Below, one piece after another: positions 6,923-57,305 of a stretch of 64,000 nt of DNA. Position 1 is the stretch's first letter; every line of letters begins with the position of its first letter. The notes under the pieces were generated by a model that was given only the letters and a program-made list of their open reading frames with translations, did no database searches and had not been told where the DNA came from. The stretch comes from Deltaproteobacteria bacterium (lineage in GTDB: Bacteria > Myxococcota_A > UBA9160 > UBA6930). The stretch lies in assembly GCA_031401135.1 (NCBI GenBank), contig JANNRF010000294.1:3393-67392 (forward strand). The letters run 5' to 3'. A program made the translations under genes and the position numbers.

Positions 6923-9900
6923 ATGTCGTTGGGCCTGCGCAGGCATGTTCCGGAGCTGGCCCTCGAGTGGATGGTCGATTCGCCGGAGCGCCGCTGGCAA
7001 GCGATCGACGGAACGCTCGTGTTCGCCGACATCTCGGGCTTCACCGCGCTCGCGGAACGGCTCGCGCAGCGCGGCCGCTCGGGCGGCGAGGAACTGGTCG
7101 AGACGCTCAGCCGCGTGTTCGGCTCGATGCTCGACATCGCCGCCGAGCGCGGCGGCATGCTGCTCAAGTTCGGCGGCGACGCGCTGCTCTTGTTCTTCCG
7201 CGGCGAGGGCCACGCCGTGCGCGCCTGCTCCGCCGCCGTCGAGATGCGGAGCTCTCTGCGCCGCGCCGCCGAGATCCCGACCTCGGTGGGCCCGCTGCGC
7301 CTCTCGATGTCGGTGGGCGTTCACTCGAGCGAGATCCTGTTCTTCCTGGTGGGCTCGTCGCACCGCGAACTCGTGGTGCTCGGGCCCGCGGTCTCGACCA
7401 CAGTCGATACCGAGAGCGCCGCCAACGCGGGCGAGATCGCGGTGAGCGCCGCCACGGCCGCCCTGCTCCCGCGCTCGGCGGTGAAGCCGCGGGCGGACGG
7501 CTGGCTGCTGTTGCGCTGGCGCACGGCGGCGAAGACGGACGCGAACCGCGATGCGGCCGGCGCCAGCGAGGCTTCCCGCGAGCGCGCCTTCGATCCGTCC
7601 GTCGCGAGGGGTCTGTTCCCGCGTGCGCTGGGCGCCGTGCTCGAGGCCGGCGCGCCCGAGCCCGAGCACCGCGTCGCGTGCATGGCCTTCATCCGCTTCT
7701 CGGGCACCGACGCGCTGCTCGCGAGCGCAGGCCCGGACGCGCTCGCGCAAGCGTTGCAAGAGACCGTCGCCGGCAGCCAGGACGTGCTCGTCTCCGAAGG
7801 CGTGACGCTGCTCGCGATCGACATCGACCGCGACGGCGGGAAGCTGTTCCTCGGCGCCGGCGTGCCGTTCGCCCACGAGGACGACGAGGGCGTGATGTTG
7901 CGCGCGTTGCGGCGCATCGCAGATGCGGGCCTGCCGCTCACCCTGCAAATGGGCGTCAACCGCGGCCACGTCTTCGCCGCCGAGTTGGGCACGCCGCGGC
8001 GCGCCGCCTACTCCGCGATGGGCGACACCACCAACACCGCCGCGCGCATCGCCGGCAAGGCGCCGCCGGGCACGATCTTCGCGCACCCCTCGGTGCTGGA
8101 TTACTCGCGCACGCTGTTCGACGTGAGGCCCGCAGGCCCGCTCGTGCTGAAGGGCAAGAAAGCTCCGCTCGCGGTCTACCAGCTCGGCGATGAGCTGGGG
8201 ACGCGCGCGCACGACGGCCTCGACGCTGTGCCGCTCGTGGGCCGCAGCGCGGAGCTGCGCGCCGTGCGCGAAGCGGTCGAACGGGTCCGCGCCGGCAGCG
8301 GCGGAATCCTCGGCCTCGCCGCTGGGCCCGGCCTCGGCAAGAGCCGGTTGTTACGGGAGGCGCTCGCCGCGGTCGATCCACGCGCCGTGCTCTCGCTGCG
8401 CGCGGAGCCCTACGGCGTGAACAGCCCGTACCGGATGTTCCGCGACACGCTGCGTGGCTTGCTCGGGATCGAGCGCGGGCCCGCGGCGACGATGCGCGCC
8501 GCACTCGAGCGTGCGGTGGCAGGCGCGGATGCGAGCCTTCTGCCGTTGCTGTCGTTATTAGGGGACGTCGCCCACATCGAGGTCGAGGCCTCCGCTGAAG
8601 TTCGCGAGATCGACGCGCGCTTTCGGCCCGAGCGCGTGGCCGACGTCGTTGTCCGGCTGCTCGGCGCGCTCCATCCGGGAACCACACTGTTCGCCGTGGA
8701 CGACGCACACTGGGCCGACCAGTCCTCCACGCATCTGCTCGGGCGGCTGGCCAGCGCGTGCAGCGAGCGGCCTTGGTTGATGCTGAGTGCGCGCCGCGAC
8801 GACGAAGGTGGCTACCGCGTGCCGGAGGGCCACGAGCTGCGCCTCGGCACGCTCGACGCCGCGAGCATGCGCGCGCTGGTCGACGCGGCGACGCAGGCGG
8901 CGCCGCTCCGGCCGCACGACGCCGAGCGCGTGGTTCAGCGCGCGAGCGGAAACCCGCTGTTCGCGCTGGAGACGATCCGCGTGGCGCGCGAACTCGGCTC
9001 GCTCGACGCGGTGCCGGAATCCCTCGAAGCGGCCATGGCCGCGCAGGTCGATGCGCTCGATCCCTCGGCGCGCCATGTGCTGCGCTACGCGTCGGTGTTA
9101 GGGCGCAGCTTCAACCGCGCGAGCCTGGCCGAGCTGTTGCACTCGGCGGAGCAAGCGCTCGACGAACCCACGCTCTCGCGTTTGGAAGCGTTTCTCGAAC
9201 CCGATGGCGACGAGCGGCTGCGCTTCCGTAATGGCCTCGTGCGAGACGCGGCGTATGAGGGGCTCGCCTACCGCCTGCGCGCGCGGCTGCACCGCGTGGC
9301 CGGCGAGGCGATCGAGCGGGCCGCGGAGGATCCGCTCGCCAGCGCCGATTCGCTTGCGCTCCACTTCTCGCGAGCGGGCGAGTTCGAGCGCAGCTGGCGC
9401 TACGGGCGCGCGGCCGCCGAGCGAGCGCGCCGCGCCTACGCGAACTCCGACGCGGTGCGCCTCTACGAACTCGCGCTCGATGGCGCGCGGCGCATCGCTT
9501 CGGTGCCGAACGCCGAGCTCGTGCGGGCCTGGATCGATCTGGGCGAAGTTCGCGAGCTGGCAGGCACGTTCGACGCCTCGCTCGATGCCTATCGAAGAGC
9601 CTCGCGCCTCGTCGGCGCGGATCCGGTGGCGCTCGCCGAGGTGTTGTTCGGCCAGGCGCGCGCGCGCGAACGCGCGGGGCAGTTCTCGGCGGCGCTGCGC
9701 GATCTCAGCCGCGGCCGGCGGGCGCTCGCGACGCACAGCTCGCCCGAAGCGGCGAAGGCGCGCGCGCGGCTGCTCTCGTTCGCCGCGATGGTGCGCTTTG
9801 GGCAGGACCACGCAGCGCAGGCGCTCGCGCTCGCTCGCGAGGCCGCGGCGGAGGCGCGCAGCGCGGGCGAACAGGCCGCCCTCGGGCGCTCGCTCGAGGT

Positions 9901-10765
9901 CTTGGACCTCGCGCAGCTCGCGACCGGCGAGCACACCAACGGCGAGCACCTGCGCGAGGCGCTGACGATCTTCGAGGCGCTCGGCGATCTCGCGATGCAG
10001 TCGACCGTGCGCCTGAACCTCGGCTTCGTCGCGGCGAACCTCGGGCGCTGGGATGAGGCCGTCGAGTGGCTCACCACGGGACGTGACGCTCACCTGCGCG
10101 CGGGCGACGCCGTGGGCGCCGCGATCTGCGCGCTGAACCTGGGCGAGATGCTCGTCAACCAAGGGCGCGTCGATGAGGCGGAGCTCGTGCTCGAGCAGGC
10201 GAAGCGCGTGATGCGCGCCAGCGAGTTCTTCGATGGCGCCGCCTCCGCGGAGCTGCACTTGGCGAGAGTGCTGATCGAGCGAGGCAAGCTGGAGGAGGCG
10301 GATGCCGCGCTCGAACGCGTGGGCGCGGAGTTCCGCAAGATGGGCAAGACCGCCACCGCGCTCGAAGCCGCGGTGGCCCGAGCACTTGGGCGCGTGCGAA
10401 GCGGAGACGCCGCGGGTGGCCTCGAGCTACTCGCGCGAGCAGCGGCGCTCACGGGCAAAGACGCGTACGTGCTGCGGCCGCGCGTGGCGCACGCGCGAGC
10501 GAGCGCGTTTGCCGCGCTCGGGCAACTCGACTCCGCAGAGCGAGAACTGCGCGGAGGACTCAAGGAGGCGACCGAGTTGGGTCTCCCCTACGAGCGGGCG
10601 TTGCTTCTGCTGCTCGCGGGAGCCGTGGCTGAACTCGATGGAAGAACTCAGGAACCCGCCGAGCTGTCGGAGGCGCAAAGCATCCTGCGACAGCTCGGCG
10701 TCGAACGAGTTCCCGAGAGCGTGCCCGCCTACCTGCGGCCGGCCGTCCAGTCTCCTTCGAGGTAG
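6923..10765 (+). CDS. Adenylate/guanylate cyclase (two class III cyclase-homology domains) fused to an AAA/STAND-type ATPase and TPR repeats
   Basis: ORF 6668..10765 trimmed to ATG 6923 (GGAGG 8 nt upstream). First cyclase domain: LVFADISGFTALAERL...LLKFGGDALLLFF. Second cyclase domain: MAFIRFSGTD...GDTTNTAARI. P-loop: GLAAGPGLGKSRLL. C-terminal third is TPR-like. Confidence 0.9.
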   Translation: MSLGLRRHVPELALEWMVDSPERRWQAIDGTLVFADISGFTALAERLAQRGRSGGEELVETLSRVFGSMLDIAAERGGMLLKFGGDALLLFFRGEGHAVRACSAAVEMRSSLRRAAEIPTSVGPLRLSMSVGVHSSEILFFLVGSSHRELVVLGPAVSTTVDTESAANAGEIAVSAATAALLPRSAVKPRADGWLLLRWRTAAKTDANRDAAGASEASRERAFDPSVARGLFPRALGAVLEAGAPEPEHRVACMAFIRFSGTDALLASAGPDALAQALQETVAGSQDVLVSEGVTLLAIDIDRDGGKLFLGAGVPFAHEDDEGVMLRALRRIADAGLPLTLQMGVNRGHVFAAELGTPRRAAYSAMGDTTNTAARIAGKAPPGTIFAHPSVLDYSRTLFDVRPAGPLVLKGKKAPLAVYQLGDELGTRAHDGLDAVPLVGRSAELRAVREAVERVRAGSGGILGLAAGPGLGKSRLLREALAAVDPRAVLSLRAEPYGVNSPYRMFRDTLRGLLGIERGPAATMRAALERAVAGADASLLPLLSLLGDVAHIEVEASAEVREIDARFRPERVADVVVRLLGALHPGTTLFAVDDAHWADQSSTHLLGRLASACSERPWLMLSARRDDEGGYRVPEGHELRLGTLDAASMRALVDAATQAAPLRPHDAERVVQRASGNPLFALETIRVARELGSLDAVPESLEAAMAAQVDALDPSARHVLRYASVLGRSFNRASLAELLHSAEQALDEPTLSRLEAFLEPDGDERLRFRNGLVRDAAYEGLAYRLRARLHRVAGEAIERAAEDPLASADSLALHFSRAGEFERSWRYGRAAAERARRAYANSDAVRLYELALDGARRIASVPNAELVRAWIDLGEVRELAGTFDASLDAYRRASRLVGADPVALAEVLFGQARARERAGQFSAALRDLSRGRRALATHSSPEAAKARARLLSFAAMVRFGQDHAAQALALAREAAAEARSAGEQAALGRSLEVLDLAQLATGEHTNGEHLREALTIFEALGDLAMQSTVRLNLGFVAANLGRWDEAVEWLTTGRDAHLRAGDAVGAAICALNLGEMLVNQGRVDEAELVLEQAKRVMRASEFFDGAASAELHLARVLIERGKLEEADAALERVGAEFRKMGKTATALEAAVARALGRVRSGDAAGGLELLARAAALTGKDAYVLRPRVAHARASAFAALGQLDSAERELRGGLKEATELGLPYERALLLLLAGAVAELDGRTQEPAELSEAQSILRQLGVERVPESVPAYLRPAVQSPSR

Positions 10766-12262: not shown

Positions 12263-13270
12263 CTAGCGGTAGCCCTCGGCCACGGGACGGCGAGGCAGTT
12301 CCCACCAAAGCGCGTCGCAGGCCGCGCGCAGGCTCTCGTCGAGCTCGATCTCGGCGGCGGCGAGCGAGGCCACGAGCTGCGCGGGCTTGCTCGCGCCGAT
12401 GATCGCGGACGTAACACCCGGCTGCGCGACGACCCAGGCGACCGCGACGCTCACGAGATCGAGCCCGCGCGCTTCCACTTCTTTCTTGAGGCGCTCGACC
12501 GCCGCGAACTGTGTCTCCTGCCAGTAGCGATGGCGATACATCTTGCCGGCCGCGCCGAGCGTGAAACGGCCCGCTTCCGCGGGCTCCGGCGCGAGCTTGT
12601 GCTTGCCCGAGAGGAAGCCGCCCGCGAGCGGGTTGTAGACGAGCACGCCGAGACCCTGAGCGATGCAGAGCGGCAGCAGCTCCGTCTCGATCTCGCGGTA
12701 CAAGATGTTGTAACGCGGCTGCACCGAGACGTAGCCCTCCGTGCCAAGTTCGCGCGCAGCCATTAGGGCTTCGGCCAGCCGCCAGGCCGGATAGTTCGAG
12801 CAGCCGACGTAACGGACCTTGCCGGCGCGCACGAGATCCTCGAGCGCACGCAGCGTCTCCTCGATGCGCACGTCGGCGTCGAAGAAGTGCGTCTGGTAGA
12901 GGTCGATGCGATCCGTGCGCAAGCGGCGCAGGCTCGCGTCGCAGGCTTTCAGGATGTGCTGGCGCGAGAGGCCGGCGTCGTTGGCGCCGCGCCCCATCTG
13001 CCCGCGGCACTTGGTGGCCAGCACGACCGCGTCGCGGTTGTTACGGAGCTGCATCCATTCGCCGATCAGCTCCTCGGTGCGGCCGACTGTCTGGCCTGTT
13101 CCGCCCAGCGGATACACGTCCGCGCTATCGAGAAAGTCGAGGCCGCCTTCGAGCGCGCGATCGAGGATCGCGAACGAGGTATCGCGGTCGCACTGCAAGC
13201 CGAACGTCATCGTGCCTAGGCAGAGCACGGGGACGCGCAGGCCCGTGCGTCCGAGCTGGCGGGTTTTCAT
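12263..13270 (-). CDS. Aldo/keto reductase family oxidoreductase
   Basis: C-terminal 335 aa of ORF 12263..14338, starting at ATG 13268-13270 (AAGGAG upstream). Sequence: MKTRQLGRTGLRVPVLCLGTMTFG...DSADVYPLG...LRRLRTDRIDLYQTHF... Confidence 0.92.
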   Translation of the reverse strand: MKTRQLGRTGLRVPVLCLGTMTFGLQCDRDTSFAILDRALEGGLDFLDSADVYPLGGTGQTVGRTEELIGEWMQLRNNRDAVVLATKCRGQMGRGANDAGLSRQHILKACDASLRRLRTDRIDLYQTHFFDADVRIEETLRALEDLVRAGKVRYVGCSNYPAWRLAEALMAARELGTEGYVSVQPRYNILYREIETELLPLCIAQGLGVLVYNPLAGGFLSGKHKLAPEPAEAGRFTLGAAGKMYRHRYWQETQFAAVERLKKEVEARGLDLVSVAVAWVVAQPGVTSAIIGASKPAQLVASLAAAEIELDESLRAACDALWWELPRRPVAEGYR

Positions 13271-14355: not shown

Positions 14356-14799
14356 TCAGATCTCATGGCTCAGCGCCGCGGTCTGCCGCTCCGCGATCTC
14401 GTACGCGGGCCCCAGCATCACCCGTAACAAGCGCTCGCTCGCGTAGAGCCGTTCGCCTGCGAGTCTCGTCTCGCCGAACACGAGCACCCCGATGATGCGA
14501 TGGCTCTCGCGCGAGCCGTCCGGCAGCGCGAGCTGAATCCAGTACTCCTCGCCGAGGCCCTCGTCCGTTGCCCATTGGTTGACGAGCTCGAAGCCCGCGA
14601 TCCACGGCTGGAACGTGCCGAAGAAATATCCGTAGTAGGCGCGCGCCGCGTCCTTGCCGCGAAACGATAGGCCCACGGTCGCAAGCTCGTAGACCGGCGC
14701 CTCCTCGAGCGTTGCGAGCGTGGTCGCGAGATCGCCGTCCGCCTCGGCCTGTGCGTGCCGCTTCGCGACCGCGACCAGCGCTTCCCGATCCGCGCGCAT
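14356..14799 (-). CDS. SnoaL/NTF2-like fold protein
   Basis: ORF 14356..14865 trimmed to ATG 14799. About 147 aa. Pattern HAQAEADGDLATTLATLEEAPVYE...FRGKDAARAYY is typical of SnoaL-like proteins. Confidence 0.6.
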   Translation of the reverse strand: MRADREALVAVAKRHAQAEADGDLATTLATLEEAPVYELATVGLSFRGKDAARAYYGYFFGTFQPWIAGFELVNQWATDEGLGEEYWIQLALPDGSRESHRIIGVLVFGETRLAGERLYASERLLRVMLGPAYEIAERQTAALSHEI

Positions 14800-16180: not shown

Positions 16181-17008
16181 ATGGCGAGCGAAGGCCAACG
16201 AGCGAGCGGAGCCGCACTTCGGGCAATCGTTACGGGCGCGAGCCGCGGTGTCGGGCGCGGCATCGCGGAAGCACTCGGCGCGATCGGCGCTGCGGTGGTG
16301 CTGAGTGGGCGCGACGAATCTGCACTCGCAGAAGCGGCGGCGTCCGTAACAAGCCTCGGTGGCCGCGGCATCGCCGTTCGCTGCGACCACCGCGACGACG
16401 CGCAGACCGAGGTGCTGTTCGCAAGCGCGCTCCGCGAGCTCGGTGGGCTGGATCTGCTCGTGAACAGCGCGTGGGCCGGTTACGAGAACATGAGCGAGGC
16501 CGGCGAGTTCAGCTGGCCGCGCCCGCACTGGGAGCAGCCGCTCTGGCGCTGGGACGCCATGCTCGCGGGCGGCGTGCGGGCGGCCTACGCCTGCTCGCGC
16601 CTCGCCGCGCGCGCGATGCTTCCGCAGCGGCGCGGGCTGATCGTGAACGTGTCTCATTGGGCCGCGCAGAAGTACCTGGGCAACGTGGCGTACGGCGTCG
16701 CGAAGGCCGCTACCGATCGCCTCACTTCCGACTGCGCGCACGAATTGCGCGCGCACGGCATCGCGGTCGTGTCGCTCTACCCAGGCCTCGTGCGCACCGA
16801 GAAGGTGATGGAGTCGGCAGCGTTCCTCGATCTCACCAACAGCGAGTCGCCGCGCTTCACGGGCCGCGCTGTGGCGGCCCTCGCGCGCGACTCCGAGCTG
16901 TTACTGCGCACGGGCCGCGCGCTCGTCGCCGCGCAGTTCGCGCTGGCGTACGGCTTCACTGACGTGGACGGCTCGCAGCCGCGGGCGCTGACGCGCGAGG
17001 AGGCTTGA
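16181..17008 (+). CDS. Short-chain dehydrogenase/reductase (SDR)
   Basis: ORF 16157..17008 trimmed to ATG 16181 (GAAGGAGG upstream). Cofactor motif TGASRGVGRGIA. Catalytic Y-x3-K in NVAYGVAKAA. Confidence 0.88.
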   Translation: MASEGQRASGAALRAIVTGASRGVGRGIAEALGAIGAAVVLSGRDESALAEAAASVTSLGGRGIAVRCDHRDDAQTEVLFASALRELGGLDLLVNSAWAGYENMSEAGEFSWPRPHWEQPLWRWDAMLAGGVRAAYACSRLAARAMLPQRRGLIVNVSHWAAQKYLGNVAYGVAKAATDRLTSDCAHELRAHGIAVVSLYPGLVRTEKVMESAAFLDLTNSESPRFTGRAVAALARDSELLLRTGRALVAAQFALAYGFTDVDGSQPRALTREEA

Positions 17009-17018: not shown

Positions 17019-17363
17019 TCACGAACGCAGCGAGACCGACCAGTCCCTCGCAACGATCCAACCGGTGACTCCGTAACAGGGGCCGAGCGTAAAGCACGTG
17101 CCTTCCTCGAGTGGTTCGATCGTCAGATCGGAGATCACATTCTGCGAGCTGAAGTCAACGAGTTCCAGATCGAGGACATCGACCAACTGGAACTCGACGA
17201 CGCTCGTCCCGAATGACAGCACGAGCTTCGAGATGCCGCTTCGCAGCAGCGATAGCTCGACGACCTCCCAGTCGTGAAAAGCCGGCCAGGCGCCAAAGCG
17301 AGCGACTAGGGCGTCTACTCCCGCGATGGCACGGTTCGGCTGGGTGTCGGTTCTCTCCTGCAT
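17019..17363 (-). CDS. Imm50-like immunity-family protein (hypothetical)
   Basis: 114-aa ORF. The motif FGAWPAFHDWEVVELSL resembles the G-WPSFHDAE signature I recall for polymorphic-toxin immunity family Imm50. Starts 4 nt after the upstream CoA-transferase stop. More A/T-rich than its neighbours. Confidence 0.5.
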   Translation of the reverse strand: MQERTDTQPNRAIAGVDALVARFGAWPAFHDWEVVELSLLRSGISKLVLSFGTSVVEFQLVDVLDLELVDFSSQNVISDLTIEPLEEGTCFTLGPCYGVTGWIVARDWSVSLRS

Positions 17364-20955: not shown

Positions 20956-22506
20956 TCACCGCTGCGCCGCCACGGGCGCGCTCTCCGCGTTCGCCTTCGC
21001 GAACACCTTCATCAGCGCGCGATGCACGATGCGCGCGGTGTCGGGCCCCGCGGAAACCACCTCGCCATAACTAGGCTCGCTGTTGCCGTAGATCCACGGC
21101 TCGTCCTCGTCCCACTCGCTGCGCGGAATGATGTAGCCGAGCGAATCGTTCGCGAGGTTGACCATCATGTTCACGCGCCCGCGCATCGCGCTGCGCAGCG
21201 GCGGCGTCTCGACTGGCGCGATCTTGTAATCAGCGCCCGGCGGGTTCTCGATGCCGCCCACCGCGATCTCGGGGTAGAGCTCGCCGGGCACGCACGCGAG
21301 CCACAACTCGCCGATGCGCACGAGCGCCACCTCGCTGTCGGTGTCGTAGCCCCAGCGAAGATCGAGATCGCGATCGAGTACGCCGAGCGTGCTCGCGAGC
21401 ACGAGCGGCCAGTTCGAAATCGGCACCTGGATCTCGCGGCTCACGACGGACACGCGCGGCGCCGCCACGCGCTCGAACGAACCCGAGGCGCGCGCTTCGA
21501 GCACCGCCTCCGCGACCTGATAACCCTGCGCGCGCGCCTTCTGCTGCGAGGGCTTCGCGATCAGCAGCCCGCTCTGCGGATCCATTACGGAGATCTCGGG
21601 CAAGGTCGTGATCAGGCCGCCGATGTTGCCGGTGAGCCAGAGCGTGGTGCCGCCGAGCCCGGGCTTGTAGAGCGCGCCGTCGTAGTCGAGGCCGCGGTCG
21701 AGCCCGCGCCGCGCCCAGCCCGCAACGTCGGCAGTGAGCTGGAAGTTGCGGTCCCAGAGCAGCTCGACGTGGTTGCCGAAGTTGAGAAGCGTGCCCAGCA
21801 CGTCGCCGCCGCCGGCGCGCGTCACGATCGCGACGCGCAGGCCGTCGTCGATGACTTCGGGCTTGCGCGTATCCACCGTCGCGATCTCGCGATCTCGCCC
21901 GCGAATCTCGGCGATCTCGATCTCGGCGGGCTCGAGCCGCCGCACGGCCTGCGCGAGCGCGGTACCCATCTGTTTGCGCAGGAACTTCAGGTAGCCGTCG
22001 GCGACGCCGCTGCGCAGGCGCGAGCGCCCCCAGATGCCCTGCGTGTCGGGCCCCTGGTGATTATGGGTGGCGTGCACGAGCAAGTAGTCGAGCTCGAGTT
22101 CGCGCGCGTAGACCTCGCGCACCTTTTGCACGAACGAGTGCGAGAGACCGACCACGTCAGCGGTGACGATGCCGACGCGCGTCGTGCCGTCGTCGAACAC
22201 CACCGCGACGGCCTCGAGCTCGTCGTGCACACCGGCCGCGGGGCGCGGGCTCTGGAAGCCGGCCATGTAGATGGCGTCGAAGCGCTCGTTGCCGTTCTTG
22301 TCTTCGTAGCGGTCGATGTCTTCGTCGTACTTGCCGTCGCCGTCGACGTCGGTCCACGAATCCGCGACCTCGGGCGTGATCGGCACGCGGCCGAAGCCGG
22401 CGCGCAGCGCGGGCTCGGCGGCGAACGCGGCACTCGCCGTAACAACCCCTGCCGCGAGCGCTGCGGCGGCGAACAGCCCTCGCCGCGCGCGAAGTGCGAG
22501 CCTCAG
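20956..22506 (-). CDS. Neutral/alkaline ceramidase-like secreted hydrolase; start codon uncertain
   Basis: ORF 20956..22386 shows RVPITPE...AGVHDELEAVAVVFDDG...VHATHNHQGPD. The in-frame upstream sequence encodes a clear signal peptide (LRLALRARRGLFAAAALAAGVVTASAAFAAEP) with no ATG/GTG/TTG. I extend to the CTG at 22504-22506. The minimal annotation is 20956..22386. Confidence 0.75.
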   Translation of the reverse strand: MRLALRARRGLFAAAALAAGVVTASAAFAAEPALRAGFGRVPITPEVADSWTDVDGDGKYDEDIDRYEDKNGNERFDAIYMAGFQSPRPAAGVHDELEAVAVVFDDGTTRVGIVTADVVGLSHSFVQKVREVYARELELDYLLVHATHNHQGPDTQGIWGRSRLRSGVADGYLKFLRKQMGTALAQAVRRLEPAEIEIAEIRGRDREIATVDTRKPEVIDDGLRVAIVTRAGGGDVLGTLLNFGNHVELLWDRNFQLTADVAGWARRGLDRGLDYDGALYKPGLGGTTLWLTGNIGGLITTLPEISVMDPQSGLLIAKPSQQKARAQGYQVAEAVLEARASGSFERVAAPRVSVVSREIQVPISNWPLVLASTLGVLDRDLDLRWGYDTDSEVALVRIGELWLACVPGELYPEIAVGGIENPPGADYKIAPVETPPLRSAMRGRVNMMVNLANDSLGYIIPRSEWDEDEPWIYGNSEPSYGEVVSAGPDTARIVHRALMKVFAKANAESAPVAAQR

Positions 22507-22804: not shown

Positions 22805-24058
22805 ATGACTAGCGCGGCTGTCCAGATCGACTTCCTCGACCCAGACGTTTCCGGAAAGCCGTACGAGGCGTACGCCGTGCTGCGCCGCGAGGCGCCCGTT
22901 TACCGCGACCCGCGTACGGGGTTCGTGCTGCTCACGCGCTACGACGACATTCGCCGCGTACTGCTCGATCCAGAGACTTTCAGTAATCAGCGCTGGCAGG
23001 CAGACGCGAAGAAGCAGGTGTTCCCCGCGCGCCAGGAGCGCATGCGGAAACTCTATGAGGAGAAGGGCTGGCTGCCCGCGCCGTCGCTCGCGGGCTACGA
23101 CGATCCGCGCCACCGCGAGATCCGCGAGGTGTTCACCAAGGCCTTCCGCGCGGGGCGCATCAAGCTGCTCGATCCGTTCGTCGCGAAGACGGCGCAGGAG
23201 CTCGTCGAGGCCTTCGCGCCAGCGGGCGCGTGCGAACTCGTACGGGCTCTCTCGGTGCCACTGCCGTTGATCGTGATCGGCCAACAAATGGGCGCGCCGA
23301 AGGAGGACATCTGGCGCATCAAGGCGTGGACCGATGCCTGGGTGCAGCGCCTCGGCATGATGCTCACGGAGGAGCAGGAAGCCTCTAGCGTCGGGATGGA
23401 GATCGAGGCGCAACACTATTTCCAGCGCATCTACGAGCGGCTGCGCGCTCAACCCGATGACACCGTGCTCTCGGACCTAATCAACACGCCGATTGGCGAC
23501 CGGCCGCTGAACGACAACGAGCTTCACGCGCACATGATGGCCGACACCTTCGTCGGCGGCAGCGAGACCACCACGAACGCGCTCTCCTCCGGCGTGTGGC
23601 TGCTGTGCCAGTTCCCCGAGCAGTACGCGAAGCTGAACGCCGAGCCCGAGCGCTACCTGCGCAACTTCATCGAGGAAGTGTTACGGCTCGAGTCGCCCGT
23701 GCAGGGGCTCTTCCGCGTCGCGTCGAAGGACGTCGAGCTGCACGGCGTGACGATTCCGAAGGGCACGACGCTCGGCATTCGCTACGCCGCGGCGAATCGC
23801 GACCCCGCGCAGTTCGAGAACCCCGACGCGCTCGATCTCGAGCGCAAGAACTCCGCCACCCACCTCGCGTTCGGCACCGGCGCGCATCACTGCCTGGGTG
23901 CGCCGCTCGCGCGAAGAGAACTCTATTGGGGCTTCAAGTCGCTGCTCGAGCGCGTCGACAGCATTCGGCTCGCGCCCGGGAAGAACGATTTCGCGATCGC
24001 GCCGAACTACTGCCTGCGCGCGCTGAAGGAACTGCACATCGAGTTCACGCCGCGCTAA
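22805..24058 (+). CDS. Cytochrome P450
   Basis: ORF 22802..24058 trimmed to ATG 22805 (AAGGAGA upstream). I-helix: ADTFVGGSETT. EXXR: EEVLRLESP. Heme loop: FGTGAHHCLGAPLARRE. Confidence 0.93.
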   Translation: MTSAAVQIDFLDPDVSGKPYEAYAVLRREAPVYRDPRTGFVLLTRYDDIRRVLLDPETFSNQRWQADAKKQVFPARQERMRKLYEEKGWLPAPSLAGYDDPRHREIREVFTKAFRAGRIKLLDPFVAKTAQELVEAFAPAGACELVRALSVPLPLIVIGQQMGAPKEDIWRIKAWTDAWVQRLGMMLTEEQEASSVGMEIEAQHYFQRIYERLRAQPDDTVLSDLINTPIGDRPLNDNELHAHMMADTFVGGSETTTNALSSGVWLLCQFPEQYAKLNAEPERYLRNFIEEVLRLESPVQGLFRVASKDVELHGVTIPKGTTLGIRYAAANRDPAQFENPDALDLERKNSATHLAFGTGAHHCLGAPLARRELYWGFKSLLERVDSIRLAPGKNDFAIAPNYCLRALKELHIEFTPR

Positions 24059-28790: not shown

Positions 28791-29678
28791 CTAACGCCTG
28801 CTCACGATCTCCGCCGCGCGCTCCACCTCGGCGAGTTCTGCGGTCGCAGGCACCAGGAAGCATTCCTCGCAGCCCGCAGCTTCGAGGTTGTCGAGGCCTT
28901 CGCGCACGGCGTCGGGTGTCGAGCGCGTGACCATCTTCGCCAGCGCGCGGCCCGCGGCCTCGCCGAACACGCGCGTGTATTCGTAGACATAACTACTCAG
29001 CTTCGCCTGCGCGTCGCCGCTCGCGAGGCACGACCAGAAGCCCCCGATCTTGCGCGGCGGCGTACTGCGCTTCGCTGCGCCCCACGTCTCGTCGGCGCGC
29101 GCGAGGAAGGCGGCAATCTCGTGCTTCTCGCCGTTGCCGCTCCACACGTAGACGCCGTCGGCCCACTGCGCGGCGCGCGCGAACGCCTTCGGGCCCATGA
29201 CGCCCGCGAAGATCGGCGGGCCGCCAGCGCGCGAGGTGCGCAGGCCAACCGGGTCGGCGCCCGCGAACGGCGGCTCGCCGCGCCAGATCTCGCGCATACG
29301 CGCGACCTGCTCGTCCATCTTCTGATGGCGCTTCGCGAAGCTCGCGCCCACCGCGCGGTAGTCGGCCTCGCGTCCGCCCACGCCGACGCACACTTCGACG
29401 CGGCCCGGCCCCGCGAGCGCGTCGAGCGTCGCGATCTCGTGCGCCGCGGCGACTGCGTCGTGCATCGGCAGCACGTAGAGCGTGGGCACGATGCGCACGC
29501 GCTCCGTAACAGCTGCGGCTGCGGCCATGGCCGCGCCGAGTGAGACTGTCGGGCCCGTAACACGTTCGCCGCACGAGATCGCGTCGAAGGGCCCAGCCTC
29601 GATGGCGCGCGCCCAGCCGAGCAACGTCCTGCGGTCGAGCCCGGGTTTCATGTAGGGAAGGCACACGCCGACTTTCAT
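28791..29678 (-). CDS. LLM-class (luciferase-like) flavin-dependent oxidoreductase
   Basis: ORF 28791..29927 trimmed to ATG 29676-29678 (GGAG upstream). Sequence: MKVGVCLPYM...FDAISCGERV...RVEVCVGVGGREADY. Confidence 0.8.
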   Translation of the reverse strand: MKVGVCLPYMKPGLDRRTLLGWARAIEAGPFDAISCGERVTGPTVSLGAAMAAAAAVTERVRIVPTLYVLPMHDAVAAAHEIATLDALAGPGRVEVCVGVGGREADYRAVGASFAKRHQKMDEQVARMREIWRGEPPFAGADPVGLRTSRAGGPPIFAGVMGPKAFARAAQWADGVYVWSGNGEKHEIAAFLARADETWGAAKRSTPPRKIGGFWSCLASGDAQAKLSSYVYEYTRVFGEAAGRALAKMVTRSTPDAVREGLDNLEAAGCEECFLVPATAELAEVERAAEIVSRR

Positions 29679-39824: not shown

Positions 39825-40526
39825 TCACTCGGCGAACAGGCGGGACGCCGCGAGCGCGAAGCGCTTTCCGAACCTGAGAGCAGCCAGCCCGCTGAAATCC
39901 CGGGCCGGCCGCGGCGGAGGGGCCTCCGGCGTGGGCGCCGCGTGCGGGAGCCTCAGCATCGCTTCGTCGTACGCGACGCCGAAAAACGCGCAGACGCGCC
40001 GCAGCTCGGAGCCGGGCTCGGTCACCAATAACTCGTATCGCAACTCGAGCCGCCGCTGCGGGTCGATCTCAGCAGCGATGCGCCGCCACTCTCGATCCGC
40101 TTCGCGCAGAGCCTGCGGCGCGGTGCTCGCAAGATCGCCAGCGCCCGGGATGCCGCGCTTCAGGTAGACGAAGCGCGCGTGCGGCCACAGCCGTAACAAG
40201 CGGTGGTAGTGACGGTGAGCGCTGGCGCCGAACAGCGCAGCCTCGGATCGCGCGCGCTGCTGGGCGAGTAGCGAGCGCACGAGTTCCGGGAACCGGAGCG
40301 TCGGATCGATCAGCAGGCGGAGTTCGCGAACCCGCGGCGCGTACGCCAACTGCTGCCAATACGGGATCAGCGGCGGCCAATCCGCGTGCTCGCTCTCTGC
40401 CCAATCGAGCGCGAAGTCGAAGTCTCCGGCCCAAGCGATCCTCGAATGCGCAGCCAGCATCAACTCGAGCAGCAACATCCCGGAGCGTTCCGCGCCCAAC
40501 AAGAAGACAGGCTCCACCACATCCAC
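39825..40526 (-). CDS. Sulfotransferase family protein
   Basis: 233 aa, GTG start. N-terminal PAPS-binding-loop-like VFLLGAERSGMLLL, plus RFVYLKR and LRYELLVTEPGSELRRVCAFFGV, as in bacterial sulfotransferases. Confidence 0.65.
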   Translation of the reverse strand: MDVVEPVFLLGAERSGMLLLELMLAAHSRIAWAGDFDFALDWAESEHADWPPLIPYWQQLAYAPRVRELRLLIDPTLRFPELVRSLLAQQRARSEAALFGASAHRHYHRLLRLWPHARFVYLKRGIPGAGDLASTAPQALREADREWRRIAAEIDPQRRLELRYELLVTEPGSELRRVCAFFGVAYDEAMLRLPHAAPTPEAPPPRPARDFSGLAALRFGKRFALAASRLFAE

Positions 40527-47916: not shown

Positions 47917-47924
47917 GCCGGCGC

Positions 47925-51961: not shown

Positions 51962-52509
51962 GCGCCGAAACTCACCTTGGGCACGCTGCGCTCTGCCGGC
52001 GAATCGAGCTCGAAATAATCGCGGCGCGAGAAGCCGAAGCCGTTGGCGACCAGGTTGCTCGGGAAGGTCTCGGTCGTCGTGTTGAGATCGCGCACGATCG
52101 CGTTGTAGTAACGGCGCGCGTTTTGGATCGCCTCCTCGAGGCTCGCGAGCTGACTCTGCAGCGCCACGAAGTTCTCATTCGCGCGCAGCTGCGGGTACGC
52201 CTCCGCCACCGCGAACAGCGCACCGATGCTGCGCGAGAGTTCGCCCTCGGCGCGCGCGCGGTCGGCCGGGGCGCCGCCCTGCATCGCGCGCGTGCGCGCC
52301 TCCGTAACACCTTGCAGCGTCTTCTGTTCGTGGCTGGCGTAGCCCTTCACCGTCTCGACCAGATTCGGGATGAGTTCGTGACGGCGCTTCAGCTGCACGT
52401 CGATGTCGCTCCAGGCGTTCTCGCTGCGATTGCGCAGTCCTACGAGACGGTTGTAGAGGGCAACGCCAGCGAACACGAGCAGAGCGAGGACGATCAAGGC
52501 GATCAGCAT
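51958..52509 (-). CDS. lemA: LemA family protein
   Basis: 183 aa, ATG 52509 with AGGAGG upstream. N-terminal TM helix, then YNRLVGLRNRSENAWSDIDVQLKRRHELIPNLVETVKGYASHE. Confidence 0.92.
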   Translation of the reverse strand: MLIALIVLALLVFAGVALYNRLVGLRNRSENAWSDIDVQLKRRHELIPNLVETVKGYASHEQKTLQGVTEARTRAMQGGAPADRARAEGELSRSIGALFAVAEAYPQLRANENFVALQSQLASLEEAIQNARRYYNAIVRDLNTTTETFPSNLVANGFGFSRRDYFELDSPAERSVPKVSFGA

Positions 52510-52584
52510 GCGAATCCTCCTGGGCGATGACGCGGCACGATGAGCCTGTTCTTAGGGAGAAATCGGCGGAAGTTCGAGGCGTGC

Positions 52585-55005
52585 TCAGCTCGCGCGTGGC
52601 GTCCAGAGCAGCACGAGCGAATCGATGCTCAGGTCGCCCTTGCGCGGAGCGACGGTGATCTCGCCAATCTCGAGTTCGCCGACGCCTCCGGCGCTGCGCA
52701 GCGCTGCTACTTCGGCTTGGAATTGCGCTTCGAGGTCTTTGAGCTGTGCGGCGATCGCTTCGGTGCTCTCCTCGGCGCGCGCGATGTCTTCGCGTTGGCG
52801 AGCGGCGCGGCCCACGCTGCGGGCCACGCTGGCGGCGCGGCCGACGTAGCTCGCGCTCGCGAGCTTTCGGCCGAACAGCGCGCCTAACACCGAGGCGCCC
52901 ATCGAGACGGCGGTTTCGAGCTTCTTGCTCGAATACTCGTCCTGCTCGCGCTCGGCGCGTTCGGCGGCGCGGCGCTGGCGCTCTTGCAGGGCGGCCAGCT
53001 TGGGCGCCCATTTCTGGCGCAGCTTCTCGAGTTCGAGATCGCGGCTCTCGTGCAGTCGGTCGCGCAGCCGAACACGAAAATCCCCTAACGACTCGCCCGC
53101 GTTCGAGAACGCCCGCAGCGCGCGGCACTCGTACAACGTGAGCGCGCGCGCTTTGAAGAGCTGCGATTCGAGCATCTTCGCCCAGCGCGCGTAGCTCGCC
53201 GGGCGCTGCGCGAGTGCGGGCAGCGGCGCGAACGCGGCGCCCGGCTCGGGGCCCGCGGCGAGCGCTGGCTTGCCCGGCAACTCCGCGAGCGCGTCCCAGG
53301 GCGAGGCCACGCTCGCTTCGTCGAGCGGCGCACTGAGCGCGAGGCTCTGCCAGGCGTCGAGCTTTGCGGGCGCGTGGACATAATGAGCGCTCGCGCTGGC
53401 GAACAGCGTGGGCGCGTAGACGAGCGTGCCGCCAGCGCCGCCCGCAGGCGGCGCGGCGAAGCGCTCCTCGATGCCCGCAGCGAGCGCGGGCCGCGGTTCG
53501 GGCGCCGAGGGCGTGGGCGCGCTCGGAGCAGGCTGCGCGACCCCAACAATCGGCGCGGCTGCGGGCGCCGCGGCGCCCGGCACAGGCGCACCCGGCTGCA
53601 TCAGCCGCCGAATCTGCTCGCGCGTCAGCGGCCCGCGCAAATACGAGAGCGCCCAGCGCGATTCGAACAGCGTGGGCGCGTCGTCGTGCACGTTGTGCAT
53701 CAGGAACTTGCGGTTGCCGAGCCCCGCGAGCGTGCGCTCCATCGCGCCGCGATCGAACGCCTTGCCAGTCGATGTCGATGCGCCTTCCAGTCCTTCGAGC
53801 ACGCGCAGCTTGTCGCGCTCGGTCTGCAGGCGACCCAAGAACCAGGTGCCCGTATTCGCGAGCCCCTTGTAGTCGAGATCGACCGGGTTCTGCGTCGCGA
53901 GCATTACGCCCACGCCGTAAGCGCGCGCCTGCTTTAACAACGTCAGCATCGGCTGCTTCGAGGGCGGGTTCGCCGTCGGCGGGAAGTAGCCGAAGATCTC
54001 GTCCATATAGAGCAAGGCACGCAGCGATTGCGTGCCCGGCTGTGCGCGCATCCAGGCGATCATTTCGGATAACAGCTGCGTCACGAAGAACATGCGCTCG
54101 CCGTCGCTCAGGTGCGCGATCGAGAGCACTGTCAGGCGCGGCTTGCCCTCGGGCGTATAGAGCAGGCGCGCGATGTCGAGCGGCTCCCCTTCGAGCCACG
54201 CGCCGAAACTCGGCGAGGCGAGCAAGTTATTGAGGTTCATCGCCAGCGCCATGCGCTCTTTGGCCGGATAGAACGTTTCGAGGTCGAACACTCCGACGCG
54301 CTCGAAGGGCGGCGTCTGGATGGCGCGGATCAGCGACGCGAGATCGAGGTTCTGCCCAGCCTTCCAAGCGGTGTCGACGATGTTTTGCAACAGAATGGAC
54401 TCGCGGCTTTGGATTGGGTCGGCGTCGAGGCCGAGCAGCGCGAGCAGGCTCGCGACCGCGGCTTGCAGCCGCTCGCGCACTGCTTCGGGATCGCTCGCGA
54501 GCGCGGGGGGCGGCGCGTCGAACGAGCGCAACAAGCGCAGCGGCCGGCCCGCAGTGGAACCCGGCGTGTAGATCGAGATCTCCGCGGCATCGCGCAGCGC
54601 CTGAATCCGCGCAGGCGTCTGGCCCCAATCCGCGAGTCCCTGGCGCCAGCGCTCGGCGGTGGTCTTCGCGTAATCGGCGGGAGTCTGCCCTGCGCGCGCT
54701 GCTTCCGCAGGATCGACCCAGGGCGCGAAATCAGCCGGCGCGAGCGATGGGAACGTGAGCATCAAGTTCCCGAGGTCTCCCTTCGGATCGATTGCGAGCG
54801 CGGGAATGCCGTCGATCGCGGCTTCTTCGAGCAGCGACAGACAGAGGCCCGTCTTGCCGCTGCCGGTCATGCCGACGCAGACCGCGTGCGTCGTCAGATC
54901 CTTCGCGTCGTAGAGCACCGGCGAATCCGTGGGCGCGCCGTCCGGGGCGAGCACGCGACCGAGGTAGAAGCTGCCGAGTTTTTCGTAGTCGTCTGCACGA
55001 AGCAT
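52585..55005 (-). CDS. HerA/FtsK-like P-loop ATPase (YjgR/DUF853-like) with long coiled-coil and Gly/Ala/Arg-rich C-terminal region
   Basis: ORF 52585..55107 trimmed to ATG 55003-55005. Walker A: CVGMTGSGKTGLCLSLLEEAA. Also ALAIDPKGDLGNL. Walker B-like: LLYMDEIFGYFP. Also GVGVMLATQNPVDLDYKGLANTGTWFLGRLQT. Confidence 0.8.
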   Translation of the reverse strand: MLRADDYEKLGSFYLGRVLAPDGAPTDSPVLYDAKDLTTHAVCVGMTGSGKTGLCLSLLEEAAIDGIPALAIDPKGDLGNLMLTFPSLAPADFAPWVDPAEAARAGQTPADYAKTTAERWRQGLADWGQTPARIQALRDAAEISIYTPGSTAGRPLRLLRSFDAPPPALASDPEAVRERLQAAVASLLALLGLDADPIQSRESILLQNIVDTAWKAGQNLDLASLIRAIQTPPFERVGVFDLETFYPAKERMALAMNLNNLLASPSFGAWLEGEPLDIARLLYTPEGKPRLTVLSIAHLSDGERMFFVTQLLSEMIAWMRAQPGTQSLRALLYMDEIFGYFPPTANPPSKQPMLTLLKQARAYGVGVMLATQNPVDLDYKGLANTGTWFLGRLQTERDKLRVLEGLEGASTSTGKAFDRGAMERTLAGLGNRKFLMHNVHDDAPTLFESRWALSYLRGPLTREQIRRLMQPGAPVPGAAAPAAAPIVGVAQPAPSAPTPSAPEPRPALAAGIEERFAAPPAGGAGGTLVYAPTLFASASAHYVHAPAKLDAWQSLALSAPLDEASVASPWDALAELPGKPALAAGPEPGAAFAPLPALAQRPASYARWAKMLESQLFKARALTLYECRALRAFSNAGESLGDFRVRLRDRLHESRDLELEKLRQKWAPKLAALQERQRRAAERAEREQDEYSSKKLETAVSMGASVLGALFGRKLASASYVGRAASVARSVGRAARQREDIARAEESTEAIAAQLKDLEAQFQAEVAALRSAGGVGELEIGEITVAPRKGDLSIDSLVLLWTPRAS

Positions 55006-55133
55006 GCGAGCGGCATACAACGCGAGGCATGCGCGGGGCAAGGGAAATCTCTCGGCCGAGCGCTCGCAAACGCAGCGTGAAAGGATGCTGGCGAACAGAG
55101 ACAGCACGAATCGTGCTTGGATTCGTCCGTCGG

Positions 55134-57305
55134 ATGAACTACAAAAGCGGGCTTCTTAATTTCGATCGCGGAGCTGCTGCGTTGCCCGACCGGATCGTGC
55201 AGGAAGAGCTGGAGCTGCTCGCGCGAGTGCGCGACACGCTCGCGAAAATGGGCGAGCCCGAGGTGCCTGACGAGAGCGGGCTCGTCGAAGATCTGCACGG
55301 CATCCGCGACCAACTGCTGCACGGCGCGCCGGATATCTACGACCAGTCTGCGCTGACCGTGCGCTTTCACGTCCAGAGTTCGGTGCTCGATCAGCTGCGC
55401 AAATCGCGGCAGGCGCCGCGCGTCGACCAAACCTCGCCGTACTTCGCGCACATGCGCCTGCGCGAGAACGGCCGCGTGCGCGATCTCTGCATCGGCAAGG
55501 CCACGCGGCTCGACAACGGCCTGCGCATCGTCGATTGGCGCAACGCGCCGATCGCGCAGCTCTTCTACCGCTACCAGCAGGGCGACGAGTACGAAGAAGA
55601 AATCAGCGGGCGCGTGCAGGCGGGGCGCGTCGAGGCGCGCCGAACCGTAACAATTCGTCGCGGCGAGCTGGAGCGCGTCGAGGCGCCCGAGGGCGTATTC
55701 GTCTCGGACGAGGGCGCGGACGAAGGCTGGCGCGTCTCGGCGAAATCGCTGCCGCGGCTCGCGGGCGGCGAAGGCGCCGCGCTGCGCGTGCTCGAAGGCG
55801 ACGGCGGCGCGCGGCGGCTCGGCACCGACCCGAGTGGGCGCGCGCTGCGCGCGGACAAGCGGCTGCCCGACATCGCGGGCCTGATCGACGCCGCGCAGTT
55901 CGACCTGATTACTCGTCCCTCCACGGGCCTCGTGGTAATTCGCGGCGCCGCGGGTTCGGGCAAAACCACTGTCGCGCTCCACCGCATCGCTTACCTCGCC
56001 TACGCGGACCCGGGCATCGATTCGAGCGCGACGCTGGTGGTCGTGTTCTCGCCGGGCCTGCGCGATTACGTGGGCCACGTGCTGCCCGCGCTCGGCGTGC
56101 GGCGCGTCGCGGTGCGCACCTTCCACCAGTGGTCGAGCGAGGTGCGGCGCCGACACTTCCCCGCGCTGCCGGGCCGCGTGCGCGAAGACACGCCTGCGCT
56201 CGTCGCACGGCTGAAGCTGCATCCCGCGCTGGAGCGCGCATTTACCCAACAAGTGGTGCGCGCGCCGGGCGAGCCTTCCCGCGCACGCGCCATCGACGAC
56301 TGGATCAGCGTGCTGACGGACCTCCCGTTCCTGCGCGAAGTGTTCGCCGCCGAAGCGCCCGACGCGTTTCGCCCGAGGCATTTGGAGGAGGCCGTCGCGC
56401 ATTGCCGCGCGCAGCTCGAAGCCGTGCAGGCCTGGCTCGCAGGCGACCGCGACGCCGAAGCCGAACTCGACCCCGAGGACGACGCGCTCTTGTTACGGGC
56501 CTGGCAGCTGCGCAACGGGCCGCTGCTCGAGGCGACTGGCGCCGAGCTTCAGTACCGCCACATCGCGATCGACGAAGTGCAGGATTTCTCGCCGCTCGAA
56601 GTGCGCGTGCTGATGGACTGCGTCGACGCCAGCCGCAGCGTGACGCTCGCTGGCGATACCCAACAGCACGTGATGCAGGCAGCAGGCTTCACCGACTGGT
56701 CGCAGTTCTTCCGCCACCTGGGCCTCGAAGCCGCCCACGTCGATACGCTGCAGATCAGCTACCGCTCCTCGGCCGAGATCACGCGCTTCGCCATGGAACT
56801 GCTCGGCCCGCTGCGCGAGCGCGATCTCGCCCTAATGACCACGCGCTCCGGCCCGCCCGTCGAGATCTTCCATTACACCGAGCACGGCGCCTGCCTGGCT
56901 GCGCTCGCCGACGCGCTGAACGCGCTCGCCAGCGCCGAGCCGCTCGCCTCGGTCGCAGTGCTGACGCCCTCGCGCGAACTCTCCGAGACCTACTACCGCG
57001 GCCTCGCCCAGAGCGACGTGCCGCGGCTGCGTTGGGTGCAGCGGCAGAACTTCGCGTTCACGCCCGGCGTCGAGGTGACGGAGATCGAGCAGGTGAAGGG
57101 CCTCGAGTACGACTACGTCGTGCTCGTCGGCTGCGACGCCGCGCACTACCCGCCAGACTCGAAATCGCGCCGCTTGCTGCACGTCGGCGCCACGCGCGCG
57201 GTGCACCAATTATGGGTGACGTGCGTGGGCGAGCCGAGCCGCGTGATCGAGGAAGCGGTGCGCGCGAGCGCGCTGGGCGGCGCGGAACTCACGAGCGAAG
57301 CCTGA
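55134..57305 (+). CDS. helD: HelD-like UvrD/Rep superfamily 1 helicase (RNA-polymerase-associated helicase IV type)
   Basis: ORF 54792..57305 trimmed to ATG 55134. HelD-type N-terminal region: SPYFAHMRLRENGRVRDLCIGKATR...IVDWRNAPIAQLFY. Walker A: GAAGSGKTTVALHR. Also IAIDEVQDFSPLE and KGLEYDYVVLV. Confidence 0.85.
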   Translation: MNYKSGLLNFDRGAAALPDRIVQEELELLARVRDTLAKMGEPEVPDESGLVEDLHGIRDQLLHGAPDIYDQSALTVRFHVQSSVLDQLRKSRQAPRVDQTSPYFAHMRLRENGRVRDLCIGKATRLDNGLRIVDWRNAPIAQLFYRYQQGDEYEEEISGRVQAGRVEARRTVTIRRGELERVEAPEGVFVSDEGADEGWRVSAKSLPRLAGGEGAALRVLEGDGGARRLGTDPSGRALRADKRLPDIAGLIDAAQFDLITRPSTGLVVIRGAAGSGKTTVALHRIAYLAYADPGIDSSATLVVVFSPGLRDYVGHVLPALGVRRVAVRTFHQWSSEVRRRHFPALPGRVREDTPALVARLKLHPALERAFTQQVVRAPGEPSRARAIDDWISVLTDLPFLREVFAAEAPDAFRPRHLEEAVAHCRAQLEAVQAWLAGDRDAEAELDPEDDALLLRAWQLRNGPLLEATGAELQYRHIAIDEVQDFSPLEVRVLMDCVDASRSVTLAGDTQQHVMQAAGFTDWSQFFRHLGLEAAHVDTLQISYRSSAEITRFAMELLGPLRERDLALMTTRSGPPVEIFHYTEHGACLAALADALNALASAEPLASVAVLTPSRELSETYYRGLAQSDVPRLRWVQRQNFAFTPGVEVTEIEQVKGLEYDYVVLVGCDAAHYPPDSKSRRLLHVGATRAVHQLWVTCVGEPSRVIEEAVRASALGGAELTSEA

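Follow-up and report, generated by a model that had tools for sequence, protein, structure and literature searches.

A hyper-abundant AT-rich DNA word in the genes of an uncultured, GC-rich Myxococcota lineage

The uptake signal sequences (USS) of Pasteurellaceae and the DNA uptake sequences (DUS) of Neisseriaceae are defined by preferential uptake by competent cells via a dedicated receptor (ComP or ComN minor pilin). In Haemophilus influenzae and Neisseria they occur about once per kb, are enriched between genes and often form inverted pairs; the intergenic enrichment and the inverted-repeat terminator pairs are strong in Neisseria and weaker in Pasteurellaceae. According to the literature, uptake sequences have been described so far only in these two families. 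Their intragenic copies lie in many frames at permissive positions and inflate certain peptides, the word is clade-specific, and its build-up is linked to molecular drive (PMC2817400, PMC3630211); the USS of Actinobacillus pleuropneumoniae numbers 765 copies per genome (PMC2817400). The subject here is a word found in an uncultured, GC-rich Myxococcota bacterium from soil, within a 64-kb stretch of contig JANNRF010000294.1 that is called the window throughout. It is the 9-mer TTGTTACGG, with the 8-mer TGTTACGG as its core; the core is not palindromic, its reverse complement being CCGTAACA. This is a hyper-abundant genomic word, its pattern being one described until now chiefly in the uptake sequences of Neisseria and Haemophilus, and it very probably represents a real and natural signal that acts at the DNA level and is specific to one clade. 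A literature search found no mention of the word in any relevant context.

The window has 69% G+C throughout and a flat GC skew. TTGTTACGG is present in 11 exact copies, both strands together, at the coordinates and on the strands reported in an earlier note on this DNA, and a k-mer survey gives 19 copies of the core TGTTACGG. Dinucleotide-preserving shuffles produce on average 0.04 copies of the 9-mer and never more than 1, and a third-order Markov model predicts 0.26 copies of TTGTTACGG and 1.14 of TGTTACGG. The 7-mer TTGTTAC occurs 18 times where 0.56 are expected; the seven of these that the earlier note had added to the 9-mers are all present, but its six minus-strand starts were 2 nt too low (they are 15014, 17543, 24524, 39782, 41914 and 63987, while 30243 was right). 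For a null model that respects the proteins, synonymous codons were permuted inside each gene in 1000 rounds, on a map of 51 genes that make up 90% of the window. After these shuffles TTGTTACGG averages 1.2 copies (maximum 3), a mean that includes one fixed copy at a gene boundary, and TGTTACGG averages 2.3 (maximum 6). The null is conservative, because the rare codons contributed by the word itself stay in the shuffles. Codon-shuffled and Markov simulations were the means by which the earlier note had proposed that its claim be refuted, and the simulated copy numbers are far below the observed 11 and 19.

The use of reachable positions is equally uneven. At 18 of the 84 genic positions where synonymous codon choice permits TGTTACGG the word is held, as is TTGTTACGG at 10 of 32, and the Hamming distance to the word at reachable positions is bimodal, being either 0 or 2–4. 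Five of the 16 Leu-Leu-Arg (LLR) tripeptides in the window are written TTG TTA CGG, and TTA makes up 37 of about 2,080 Leu codons in its genes (about 2%).

Data on the word come from the 64 kb of the source genome and about 200 kb from close relatives, all in one syntenic region; enrichment outside the window was thus tested in relatives only, not elsewhere in the source genome. The syntenic loci are from metagenome-assembled genomes (MAGs) of other species (L001/L010 and L004–L011) and from Joint Genome Institute (JGI) metagenomes (L025–L073), and the closest relative, represented by L077 and L079, has 93.7% nucleotide identity to the window. By amino-acid identity the counts are as follows.

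Genome MAGs, about 75–81% identity: 107 kb, 70.9% G+C, 10 copies of TGTTACGG and 8 of TTGTTACGG
JGI loci, 84–85% identity: 66 kb, 70.7% G+C, 11 copies of TGTTACGG and 8 of TTGTTACGG
32 loci, 60–71% identity: 302 kb, 72.5% G+C, no copy of either
11 loci, 43–51% identity: 135 kb, 65% G+C, no copy of either

The word is found in every relative with at least 75% amino-acid identity, apart from one 9-kb locus and one 2-kb fragment. The more distant Myxococcota loci, about 436 kb, have zero copies, and the word is therefore clade-specific. The TTA density of the 43–51% group equals that of the window, yet no copy occurs there. Other 'dialect' words were looked for in the distant Myxococcota and rejected, the top k-mers there being orthologous repeats in few distinct contexts. 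In L004 (3735–7939, on a 637-kb contig) the ABC1 and AMP-binding genes are broken into fragments of 80, 135 and 46 amino acids, which suggests frameshift errors, probably from long-read assembly, so that word counts from this locus need care.

The 19 copies in the window are listed below, each with its strand and its reading relative to the gene that holds it; a lower-case letter marks the base that precedes the core where the 9-mer is not complete.

8348..8356 (+): TTGTTACGG, sense TTG TTA CGG (LLR), gene 6893-10765(+)
13038..13046 (+): TTGTTACGG, antisense C CGT AAC AA (RN), gene 12263-14137(-)
14422..14430 (-): TTGTTACGG, sense TTG TTA CGG (LLR), gene 14356-14799(-), whose protein is exact in a public collection
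16344..16352 (-): TTGTTACGG, antisense CC GTA ACA A (VT), gene 16295-17008(+)
17071..17078 (-): cTGTTACGG, 8-mer core only, sense TGT TAC GG (CYG), open reading frame 17019-17363(-)
22437..22445 (-): TTGTTACGG, at the 5' boundary of gene 20956-22386(-); TTGTTACGA in the 94%-identical relative
23679..23686 (+): gTGTTACGG, sense GTG TTA CGG (VLR), P450 gene 22802-24058(+); shared with L077, GTC GTG CGG in L001
25136..25144 (-): TTGTTACGG, sense TTT TGT TAC GGC (FCYG), PBP1A gene 24055-26256(-); kept in L001, not in L004
29504..29511 (-): cTGTTACGG, sense GCT GTT ACG G (AVT), luciferase-like gene 28791-29678(-); raw-run assembly L076 identical, CCGTCACGC in relatives
29555..29562 (-): gTGTTACGG, sense CGT GTT ACG G (RVT), luciferase-like gene 28791-29678(-); L076 identical, GCGTCACGG in L001
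37161..37168 (+): aTGTTACGG, antisense C CGT AAC A (RN), gene 36853-37935(-), whose protein is exact in a public collection
40191..40199 (-): TTGTTACGG, sense TTG TTA CGG (LLR), gene 39825-40526(-); shared with L009, GTG CTG CGC in L001 and L010
43067..43075 (-): TTGTTACGG, sense TTG TTA CGG (LLR), CoA-transferase gene 41321-43792(-); kept in 8 relatives' loci, CTG CTG CGC in L008
44772..44780 (+): TTGTTACGG, sense ATT GTT ACG GGC (IVTG), SDR gene 44744-45655(+); ATC/GTC GTC ACC GGC in five relatives, GTG ATT ACG GGC in L009
51710..51717 (+): cTGTTACGG, antisense CC GTA ACA (VT), DUF2207 gene 50249-51961(-); raw-run assemblies L074 and L075 identical, CGGTTACGG in L079
52302..52309 (-): gTGTTACGG, sense GGT GTT ACG G (GVT), LemA gene 51958-52509(-); L074 and L075 identical
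55645..55653 (-): TTGTTACGG, antisense CC GTA ACA A (VT), UvrD/HelD-like gene 55182-57305(+); TCGTCACCG in L005
56490..56498 (+): TTGTTACGG, sense TTG TTA CGG (LLR), UvrD/HelD-like gene 55182-57305(+); shared with L005 and L079
62459..62466 (-): cTGTTACGG, antisense C CGT AAC A (RN), gene 61995-62867(+)

These copies spread over five frame and strand classes: sense xTG TTA CGG (6 copies), xxT GTT ACG G (4) and TGT TAC GG (2), and antisense C CGT AAC A (3) and CC GTA ACA (3), with one more at a gene boundary. The earlier note had read the codons of the 9-mer copies correctly, including TTG TTA CGG at 8348, 14422, 40191, 43067 and 56490. Its count of eight sense copies among 11 becomes seven sense, three antisense and one (22437) at a gene boundary, although eight would hold if the gene at 22437 starts upstream, as its 501-amino-acid orthologue suggests; from the sequence, this copy probably lies inside the N-terminal coding part of gene 20956-22386(-), where it would be read GTT GTT ACG G. 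In all, 18–19 of the 19 copies are genic, in DNA that is 90% coding. Counting the window and the private sites of relatives as 26 independent sites, the orientations are 11 '+' and 15 '-', with no departure from 1:1 (p=0.56), and among 25 independent genic sites 15 are sense and 10 antisense, again without significant bias (p=0.42). Spacing is compatible with random placement: neither clustering nor periodic or regular spacing of the word was found in the window, and there are no inverted pairs among the listed sites. Nor does any Rfam family match anywhere in the window. The copy at 37161 goes with a His>Asn replacement relative to L001 and L004. In the window, L001 and L004 the PBP1A gene (24055-26256), which holds copy 25136, is flanked by CMD and P450 genes; in L077 (12954–14630) it is missing from that position and the CMD and P450 genes are adjacent.

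As a motif, the word is sharp. The base at position -1 of the TGTTACGG copies is T in 11, C in 4, G in 3 and A in 1, so that T is preferred and not required. Among one-mismatch neighbours of the 9-mer only position 1 is tolerant, while variants at the other eight positions stay near expectation and are not enriched. A matrix built from 27 independent sites carries information outside the core solely at -3 (R), -1 (T) and +1 (R), and the per-position values sum to roughly 18 bits. The near-expectation variants and the lack of wider information in the matrix together define a DNA motif of 8–9 bp. An extended motif or hidden repeat is rejected, there being no information past these three flanking positions, and the 30 nt on each side are unrelated among copies. 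The ends of dispersed elements (repetitive extragenic palindromes, miniature inverted-repeat transposable elements, insertion sequences) are likewise rejected, since the flanks are unrelated and the genic copies align to relatives' genes without indels; the boundary copy at 22437 adjoins an alignment gap against relatives.

Comparison with relatives reveals a rapid turnover of sites. Mapped to window coordinates, the relatives have 12 distinct sites, of which four are in common with the window: 43067 (8 loci), 40191 (L009), 56490 (L005) and 25136 (L001). The first of these is kept, flanks included, in 8 of the relatives' 9 loci. Where a site is not shared, the genome lacking the word has the same or a similar peptide, written with common codons, as in the following cases.

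Site 44772: ATT GTT ACG GGC with the word (window); ATC GTC ACC GGC without it (relatives)
Site 40191: TTG TTA CGG with the word (window); GTG CTG CGC without it (relatives)
Site 36730: TTG TTA CGG with the word (relatives); CTG CTG CGG without it (window)
Site 43067: TTG TTA CGG with the word (window, 8 loci); CTG CTG CGC without it (L008)

Gains and losses of the word take 2–4 substitutions, transversions (C>G and G>T) included, and therefore no single context-dependent mutation can explain it. Polarised substitutions over 11.6 kb with at least three relatives show no context signature matching the word, and the spectra of the window and L009 lineages are similar. An APOBEC- or DddA-like TC>TT signature was considered and rejected: C>T changes peak at NCT (the synonymous CTG>TTG), and TCA is unremarkable.

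Individual sites are not clearly better conserved than controls. Of 44 site-relative pairs at about 80% identity, 11 keep the word, where 11.6 are expected from all 8-mers and 3.6 from TTA-containing controls, and 8 of these 11 stem from one site. Per site, conservation at this distance is 4/13 versus 22/131 for matched controls (p=0.25). The 94%-identical relative shares 6 of 8 sites versus 56% of controls (p=0.46); at the two sites found only in the window it differs by a single base. Comparisons with relatives give no evidence of strong constraint on particular positions. The density of the word is accordingly kept by continual replenishment or by selection on density itself. In the L008 orthologue of window site 43067 the copy is replaced by CTGCTGCGC, with four substitutions within 9 nt as well as changes in the flanks, and this lineage differs from its sisters by only about 12%. 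The change looks like allele replacement through recombination and not stepwise decay.

Exact copies with random flanks, together with several further words that are regionally clustered, raised the suspicion of a planted motif. The PBP1A protein is 100% identical to the NCBI protein of a deposited Myxococcota MAG, and 8 of 10 further window proteins, that of gene 36853-37935 among them, are exact in a public collection (9 of 11 overall). Logan assemblies of runs SRR20217205 and SRR20217196 match window positions 49184–52359 and 28766–30638 with 100% and 99.84% identity; four copies (29504, 29555, 51710 and 52302) lie inside these roughly 5 kb. The exact deposited proteins and the raw-run assemblies rule out in-silico editing. 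A long-read basecalling or methylation artefact is rejected as well, because Illumina MAGs of other species, assembled with MEGAHIT and SPAdes, carry the word at orthologous sites. The DNA of the window has not been edited, and the reads contain the word.

As to cause, the earlier note had argued for something at the nucleotide level, as against amino-acid constraint or codon usage, and the codon-shuffle null, the five frame and strand classes and the common codons of relatives at orthologous sites all bear this out. Amino-acid constraint is excluded, save as a contributor at the FCYG copy of the PBP (25136). Also excluded are chance, codon usage, an mRNA or translation signal, a repeat element, a simple mutational hotspot, artefact and recoding. 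What remains is a sequence-specific force on double-stranded DNA that is independent of orientation, confined to one clade and accompanied by rapid site turnover. Four candidates had been named at the outset. The strongest that is left is a word that resembles an uptake signal or binds a protein, while non-natural recoding is refuted by raw-run assemblies identical to the window and by the word's presence in relatives; the other two, an mRNA-level signal and a context-specific mutational process, are disfavoured for reasons given below.

By analogy, an uptake or self-recognition word of the USS/DUS type is tentatively the best fit. Some DNA-binding part of the machinery for transformation or recombination would prefer fragments that bear the word, and recombination would spread these fragments (molecular drive). 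Alleles with the exact word would thereby be favoured over the usual GC-rich codons, in transmission or in fitness, and the word would build up at all positions where the protein can accommodate it, whatever the frame or orientation, with sites turning over between species. An AT-rich tag in 69% G+C DNA could mark 'self' with high specificity. More speculatively, and on the same analogy, this might be the first word for uptake or self-recognition to be found beyond Neisseriaceae and Pasteurellaceae, an AT-rich tag biasing DNA uptake or recombination to the organism's own kind, perhaps with further lineage-specific 'dialect' words whose regional clusters could mark recombination tracts. That the preference is for uptake or recombination, rather than some other DNA-binding function, is only what we infer.

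Several points weigh against an uptake word. Its genome-wide enrichment is extrapolated from one syntenic region, and it is 3–5 times sparser than the uptake sequences of H. influenzae or Neisseria. Unlike USS and DUS, it shows no intergenic enrichment and forms no inverted-repeat terminator pairs. A 75% orientation skew of the Chi kind has P=0.04 (15 of 26 sites in the major orientation), which is marginal and assumes a single replichore. Finally, uptake does not explain the other enriched words of the window described below, and a broader cause may lie behind them.

Among the alternatives, the word may be bound by an abundant, sequence-specific protein of the chromosome (one for nucleoid organisation or segregation, for example) or by an orphan modification enzyme, with selection on sites or on density; this is unlikely. 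In its favour, a sharp word of 8–9 bp and about 18 bits is typical of the specificity of a single protein, and the word occurs in either orientation. Site 43067 is retained with its flanks in 8 of 9 loci, the 94%-identical relative keeps 6 of 8 sites versus 56% of controls, and the cyanobacterial HIP1, also a hyper-abundant intragenic word, is a precedent (PMC5861425). Conservation at about 80% identity, however, is not significantly above controls (4/13 vs 22/131), which favours replenishment rather than a function of single sites, and the sites have no periodic or regular spacing.

Rather improbable is a Chi-like control word for the clade's break-repair nuclease of RecBCD/AddAB type, kept dense so that the cell's own DNA is repaired and not degraded. 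The non-palindromic 8-nt core at 1 per 3.4 kb resembles the Chi of Escherichia coli, and so do the even spread through ordinary genes, the clade specificity that Chi motifs have in general, and the turnover of sites at a maintained density. Chi in E. coli has about 75% leading-strand orientation. The present word, with 11:15 over 26 sites in one syntenic stretch, shows no significant orientation bias (a 75% skew having the marginal P value above), and no RecBCD/AddAB gene lies in the window. Known Chi sequences, moreover, are G-rich and fit common codons, whereas this word uses the rarest.

A biased repair or conversion process of the very-short-patch (VSP) type, in which mismatches in near-cognate sites are resolved toward the word with no benefit to the cell, is improbable. 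It would account for the quick turnover of sites that are not clearly conserved, for the all-or-none occupation of reachable sites, and for the company of other context effects in the genome (a GATC excess, CTA before ATN, and GATCA>GATTA products). Known VSP systems have contexts of 4–5 nt and a single mismatch type. Here, 2–4 differing substitutions, C>G and G>T among them, converge on one 8–9-mer, one-mismatch intermediates are not enriched, and the context spectrum of derived changes has no matching signature; the varied substitutions and the missing signature also count against the context-specific mutational process of the earlier note.

An mRNA or translation signal, such as a pause at rare codons, a site cut by a toxin or RNase, or the target of a small RNA or RNA-binding protein, is very improbable and is largely refuted by the antisense copies. 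In the window 12 of the 18 genic copies are sense, a third of all copies set the very rare TTA in frame, and some other enriched words are strongly sense-biased and frame-specific; against this, 10 of 25 independent genic sites are antisense (p=0.42), the sense copies occur in all three phases, and no Rfam match was found in the window. Chance, amino-acid constraint, a dispersed repeat, an assembly artefact or in-silico editing have a negligible probability: copy 25136 does lie in the conserved PBP motif FCYG next to SxxK, common to L001, but no shuffle reaches the observed count, the flanks are ordinary gene sequence, collinear with relatives and unrelated among copies, the word is present both in raw-run assemblies and in Illumina MAGs of other species, and the proteins match the deposited record exactly.

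Other AT-rich words in the window are far above codon-shuffle expectation: TTATCAGG (9 copies), TTATTGGG (7), TTGTTGGG (13) and TGATTACG (9), and further ATTAGGG (11), ATTAGGT (8) and TAGGGGA (8). Unlike TGTTACGG, they are mostly sense-biased and use only one frame or two. For the most part they are private to the species-level lineage of the window, being nearly absent at 85% amino-acid identity or less, and the 94%-identical relative retains 35 of 40 versus 45 of 80 control TTA-containing 8-mers (p=0.0005). Several cluster regionally in stretches of 13–25 kb (p=0.0006–0.016), and their ranges in the window are as follows.

TTATCAGG: 21516–41564
TTATTGGG: 740–5319 and 48776–61406
TAGGGGA: 2205–15003
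ATTAGGT: 12006–35977
TTGTTGGG, ATTAGGG and TGATTACG: throughout

Enriched words also swap at orthologous sites: where the window has TTGTTGGGG (53542), L028 has TTGTTACGG (1071), and where the window has TTGTTACGG (44772), L009 has TGATTACGG. With 532 sites in the window vs 184 expected, GATC is over-represented about 2.9 times, and words containing GAGATC, such as CGAGATCG, occur 62–63 times vs 25 in codon-shuffled sequence. In alignments with relatives several ATTA words stand opposite GATCA or CTGATC, and some of the other words look, from these alignments, like decay products of GATC with C>T on either strand. The GATC pattern may hint at a modification or repair system that targets GATC. 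An extreme codon-context effect is seen at Leu codons before ATN, which are CTG (49 of 679), TTG (19 of 186) or CTA (16 of 35) and hardly ever CTC (6 of 1065), the commonest Leu codon overall.

Hyper-abundant words are uncommon, and every class described to date (USS/DUS, Chi, KOPS, HIP1) has disclosed part of chromosome biology. Uptake sequences have come so far from two host-associated families of Proteobacteria; a word of like population-genetic signature in free-living, uncultured Myxococcota would suggest that self-biased DNA exchange, or other machinery that reads such words, is more widespread than supposed. It would also be a handle for finding the reader protein, by way of the sharp boundary between 85% and 71% amino-acid identity, and it could act as a lineage marker in soil metagenomes. 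It also illustrates that a strong force can hold the rarest codons, such as TTA, in a genome of 69% G+C.

Set beside the known systems, the word resembles each in part. The FtsK-orienting polar sequences (KOPS) and architecture-imparting sequences (AIMS), for example GGGNAGGG, are likewise over-represented chromosomal octamers, but these have an extreme replichore skew, which is not seen here (11:15). HIP1 of cyanobacteria (GCGATCGC) is a closer match, as both are hyper-abundant, clade-specific octamers that occupy genes in all frames and are not explained by codon usage (PMC5861425). It differs in being palindromic and linked to methyltransferase sites, and its sites are conserved above controls, while the present word is non-palindromic and has site conservation of 4/13 vs 22/131. 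Chi (e.g. GCTGGTGG in E. coli) and the present word are both asymmetric 8-mers, lineage-specific, found in core genes about once per 3–5 kb, with density rather than position apparently maintained; Chi is G-rich and codon-compatible, in contrast to an AT-rich word of rare codons without detected strand skew (11:15). In contrast to the USS of Pasteurellaceae (core AAGTGCGGT) and the DUS of Neisseriaceae (GCCGTCTGAA and its dialects), the present word has no extended flank consensus, is AT-rich in a GC-rich genome and belongs to a different phylum. Otherwise both are short exact words far above chance, compositionally atypical, common to a clade and absent outside it, with turnover between species. 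Both lie in either orientation and several frames inside genes where the protein tolerates them, inflating the encoded peptides, with no polarity of replication or transcription (here 11:15 and 15:10). In both, perfect copies outnumber one-off copies, and the density of the present word (1 per 3.4–5.8 kb) is close to that of the USS of A. pleuropneumoniae.

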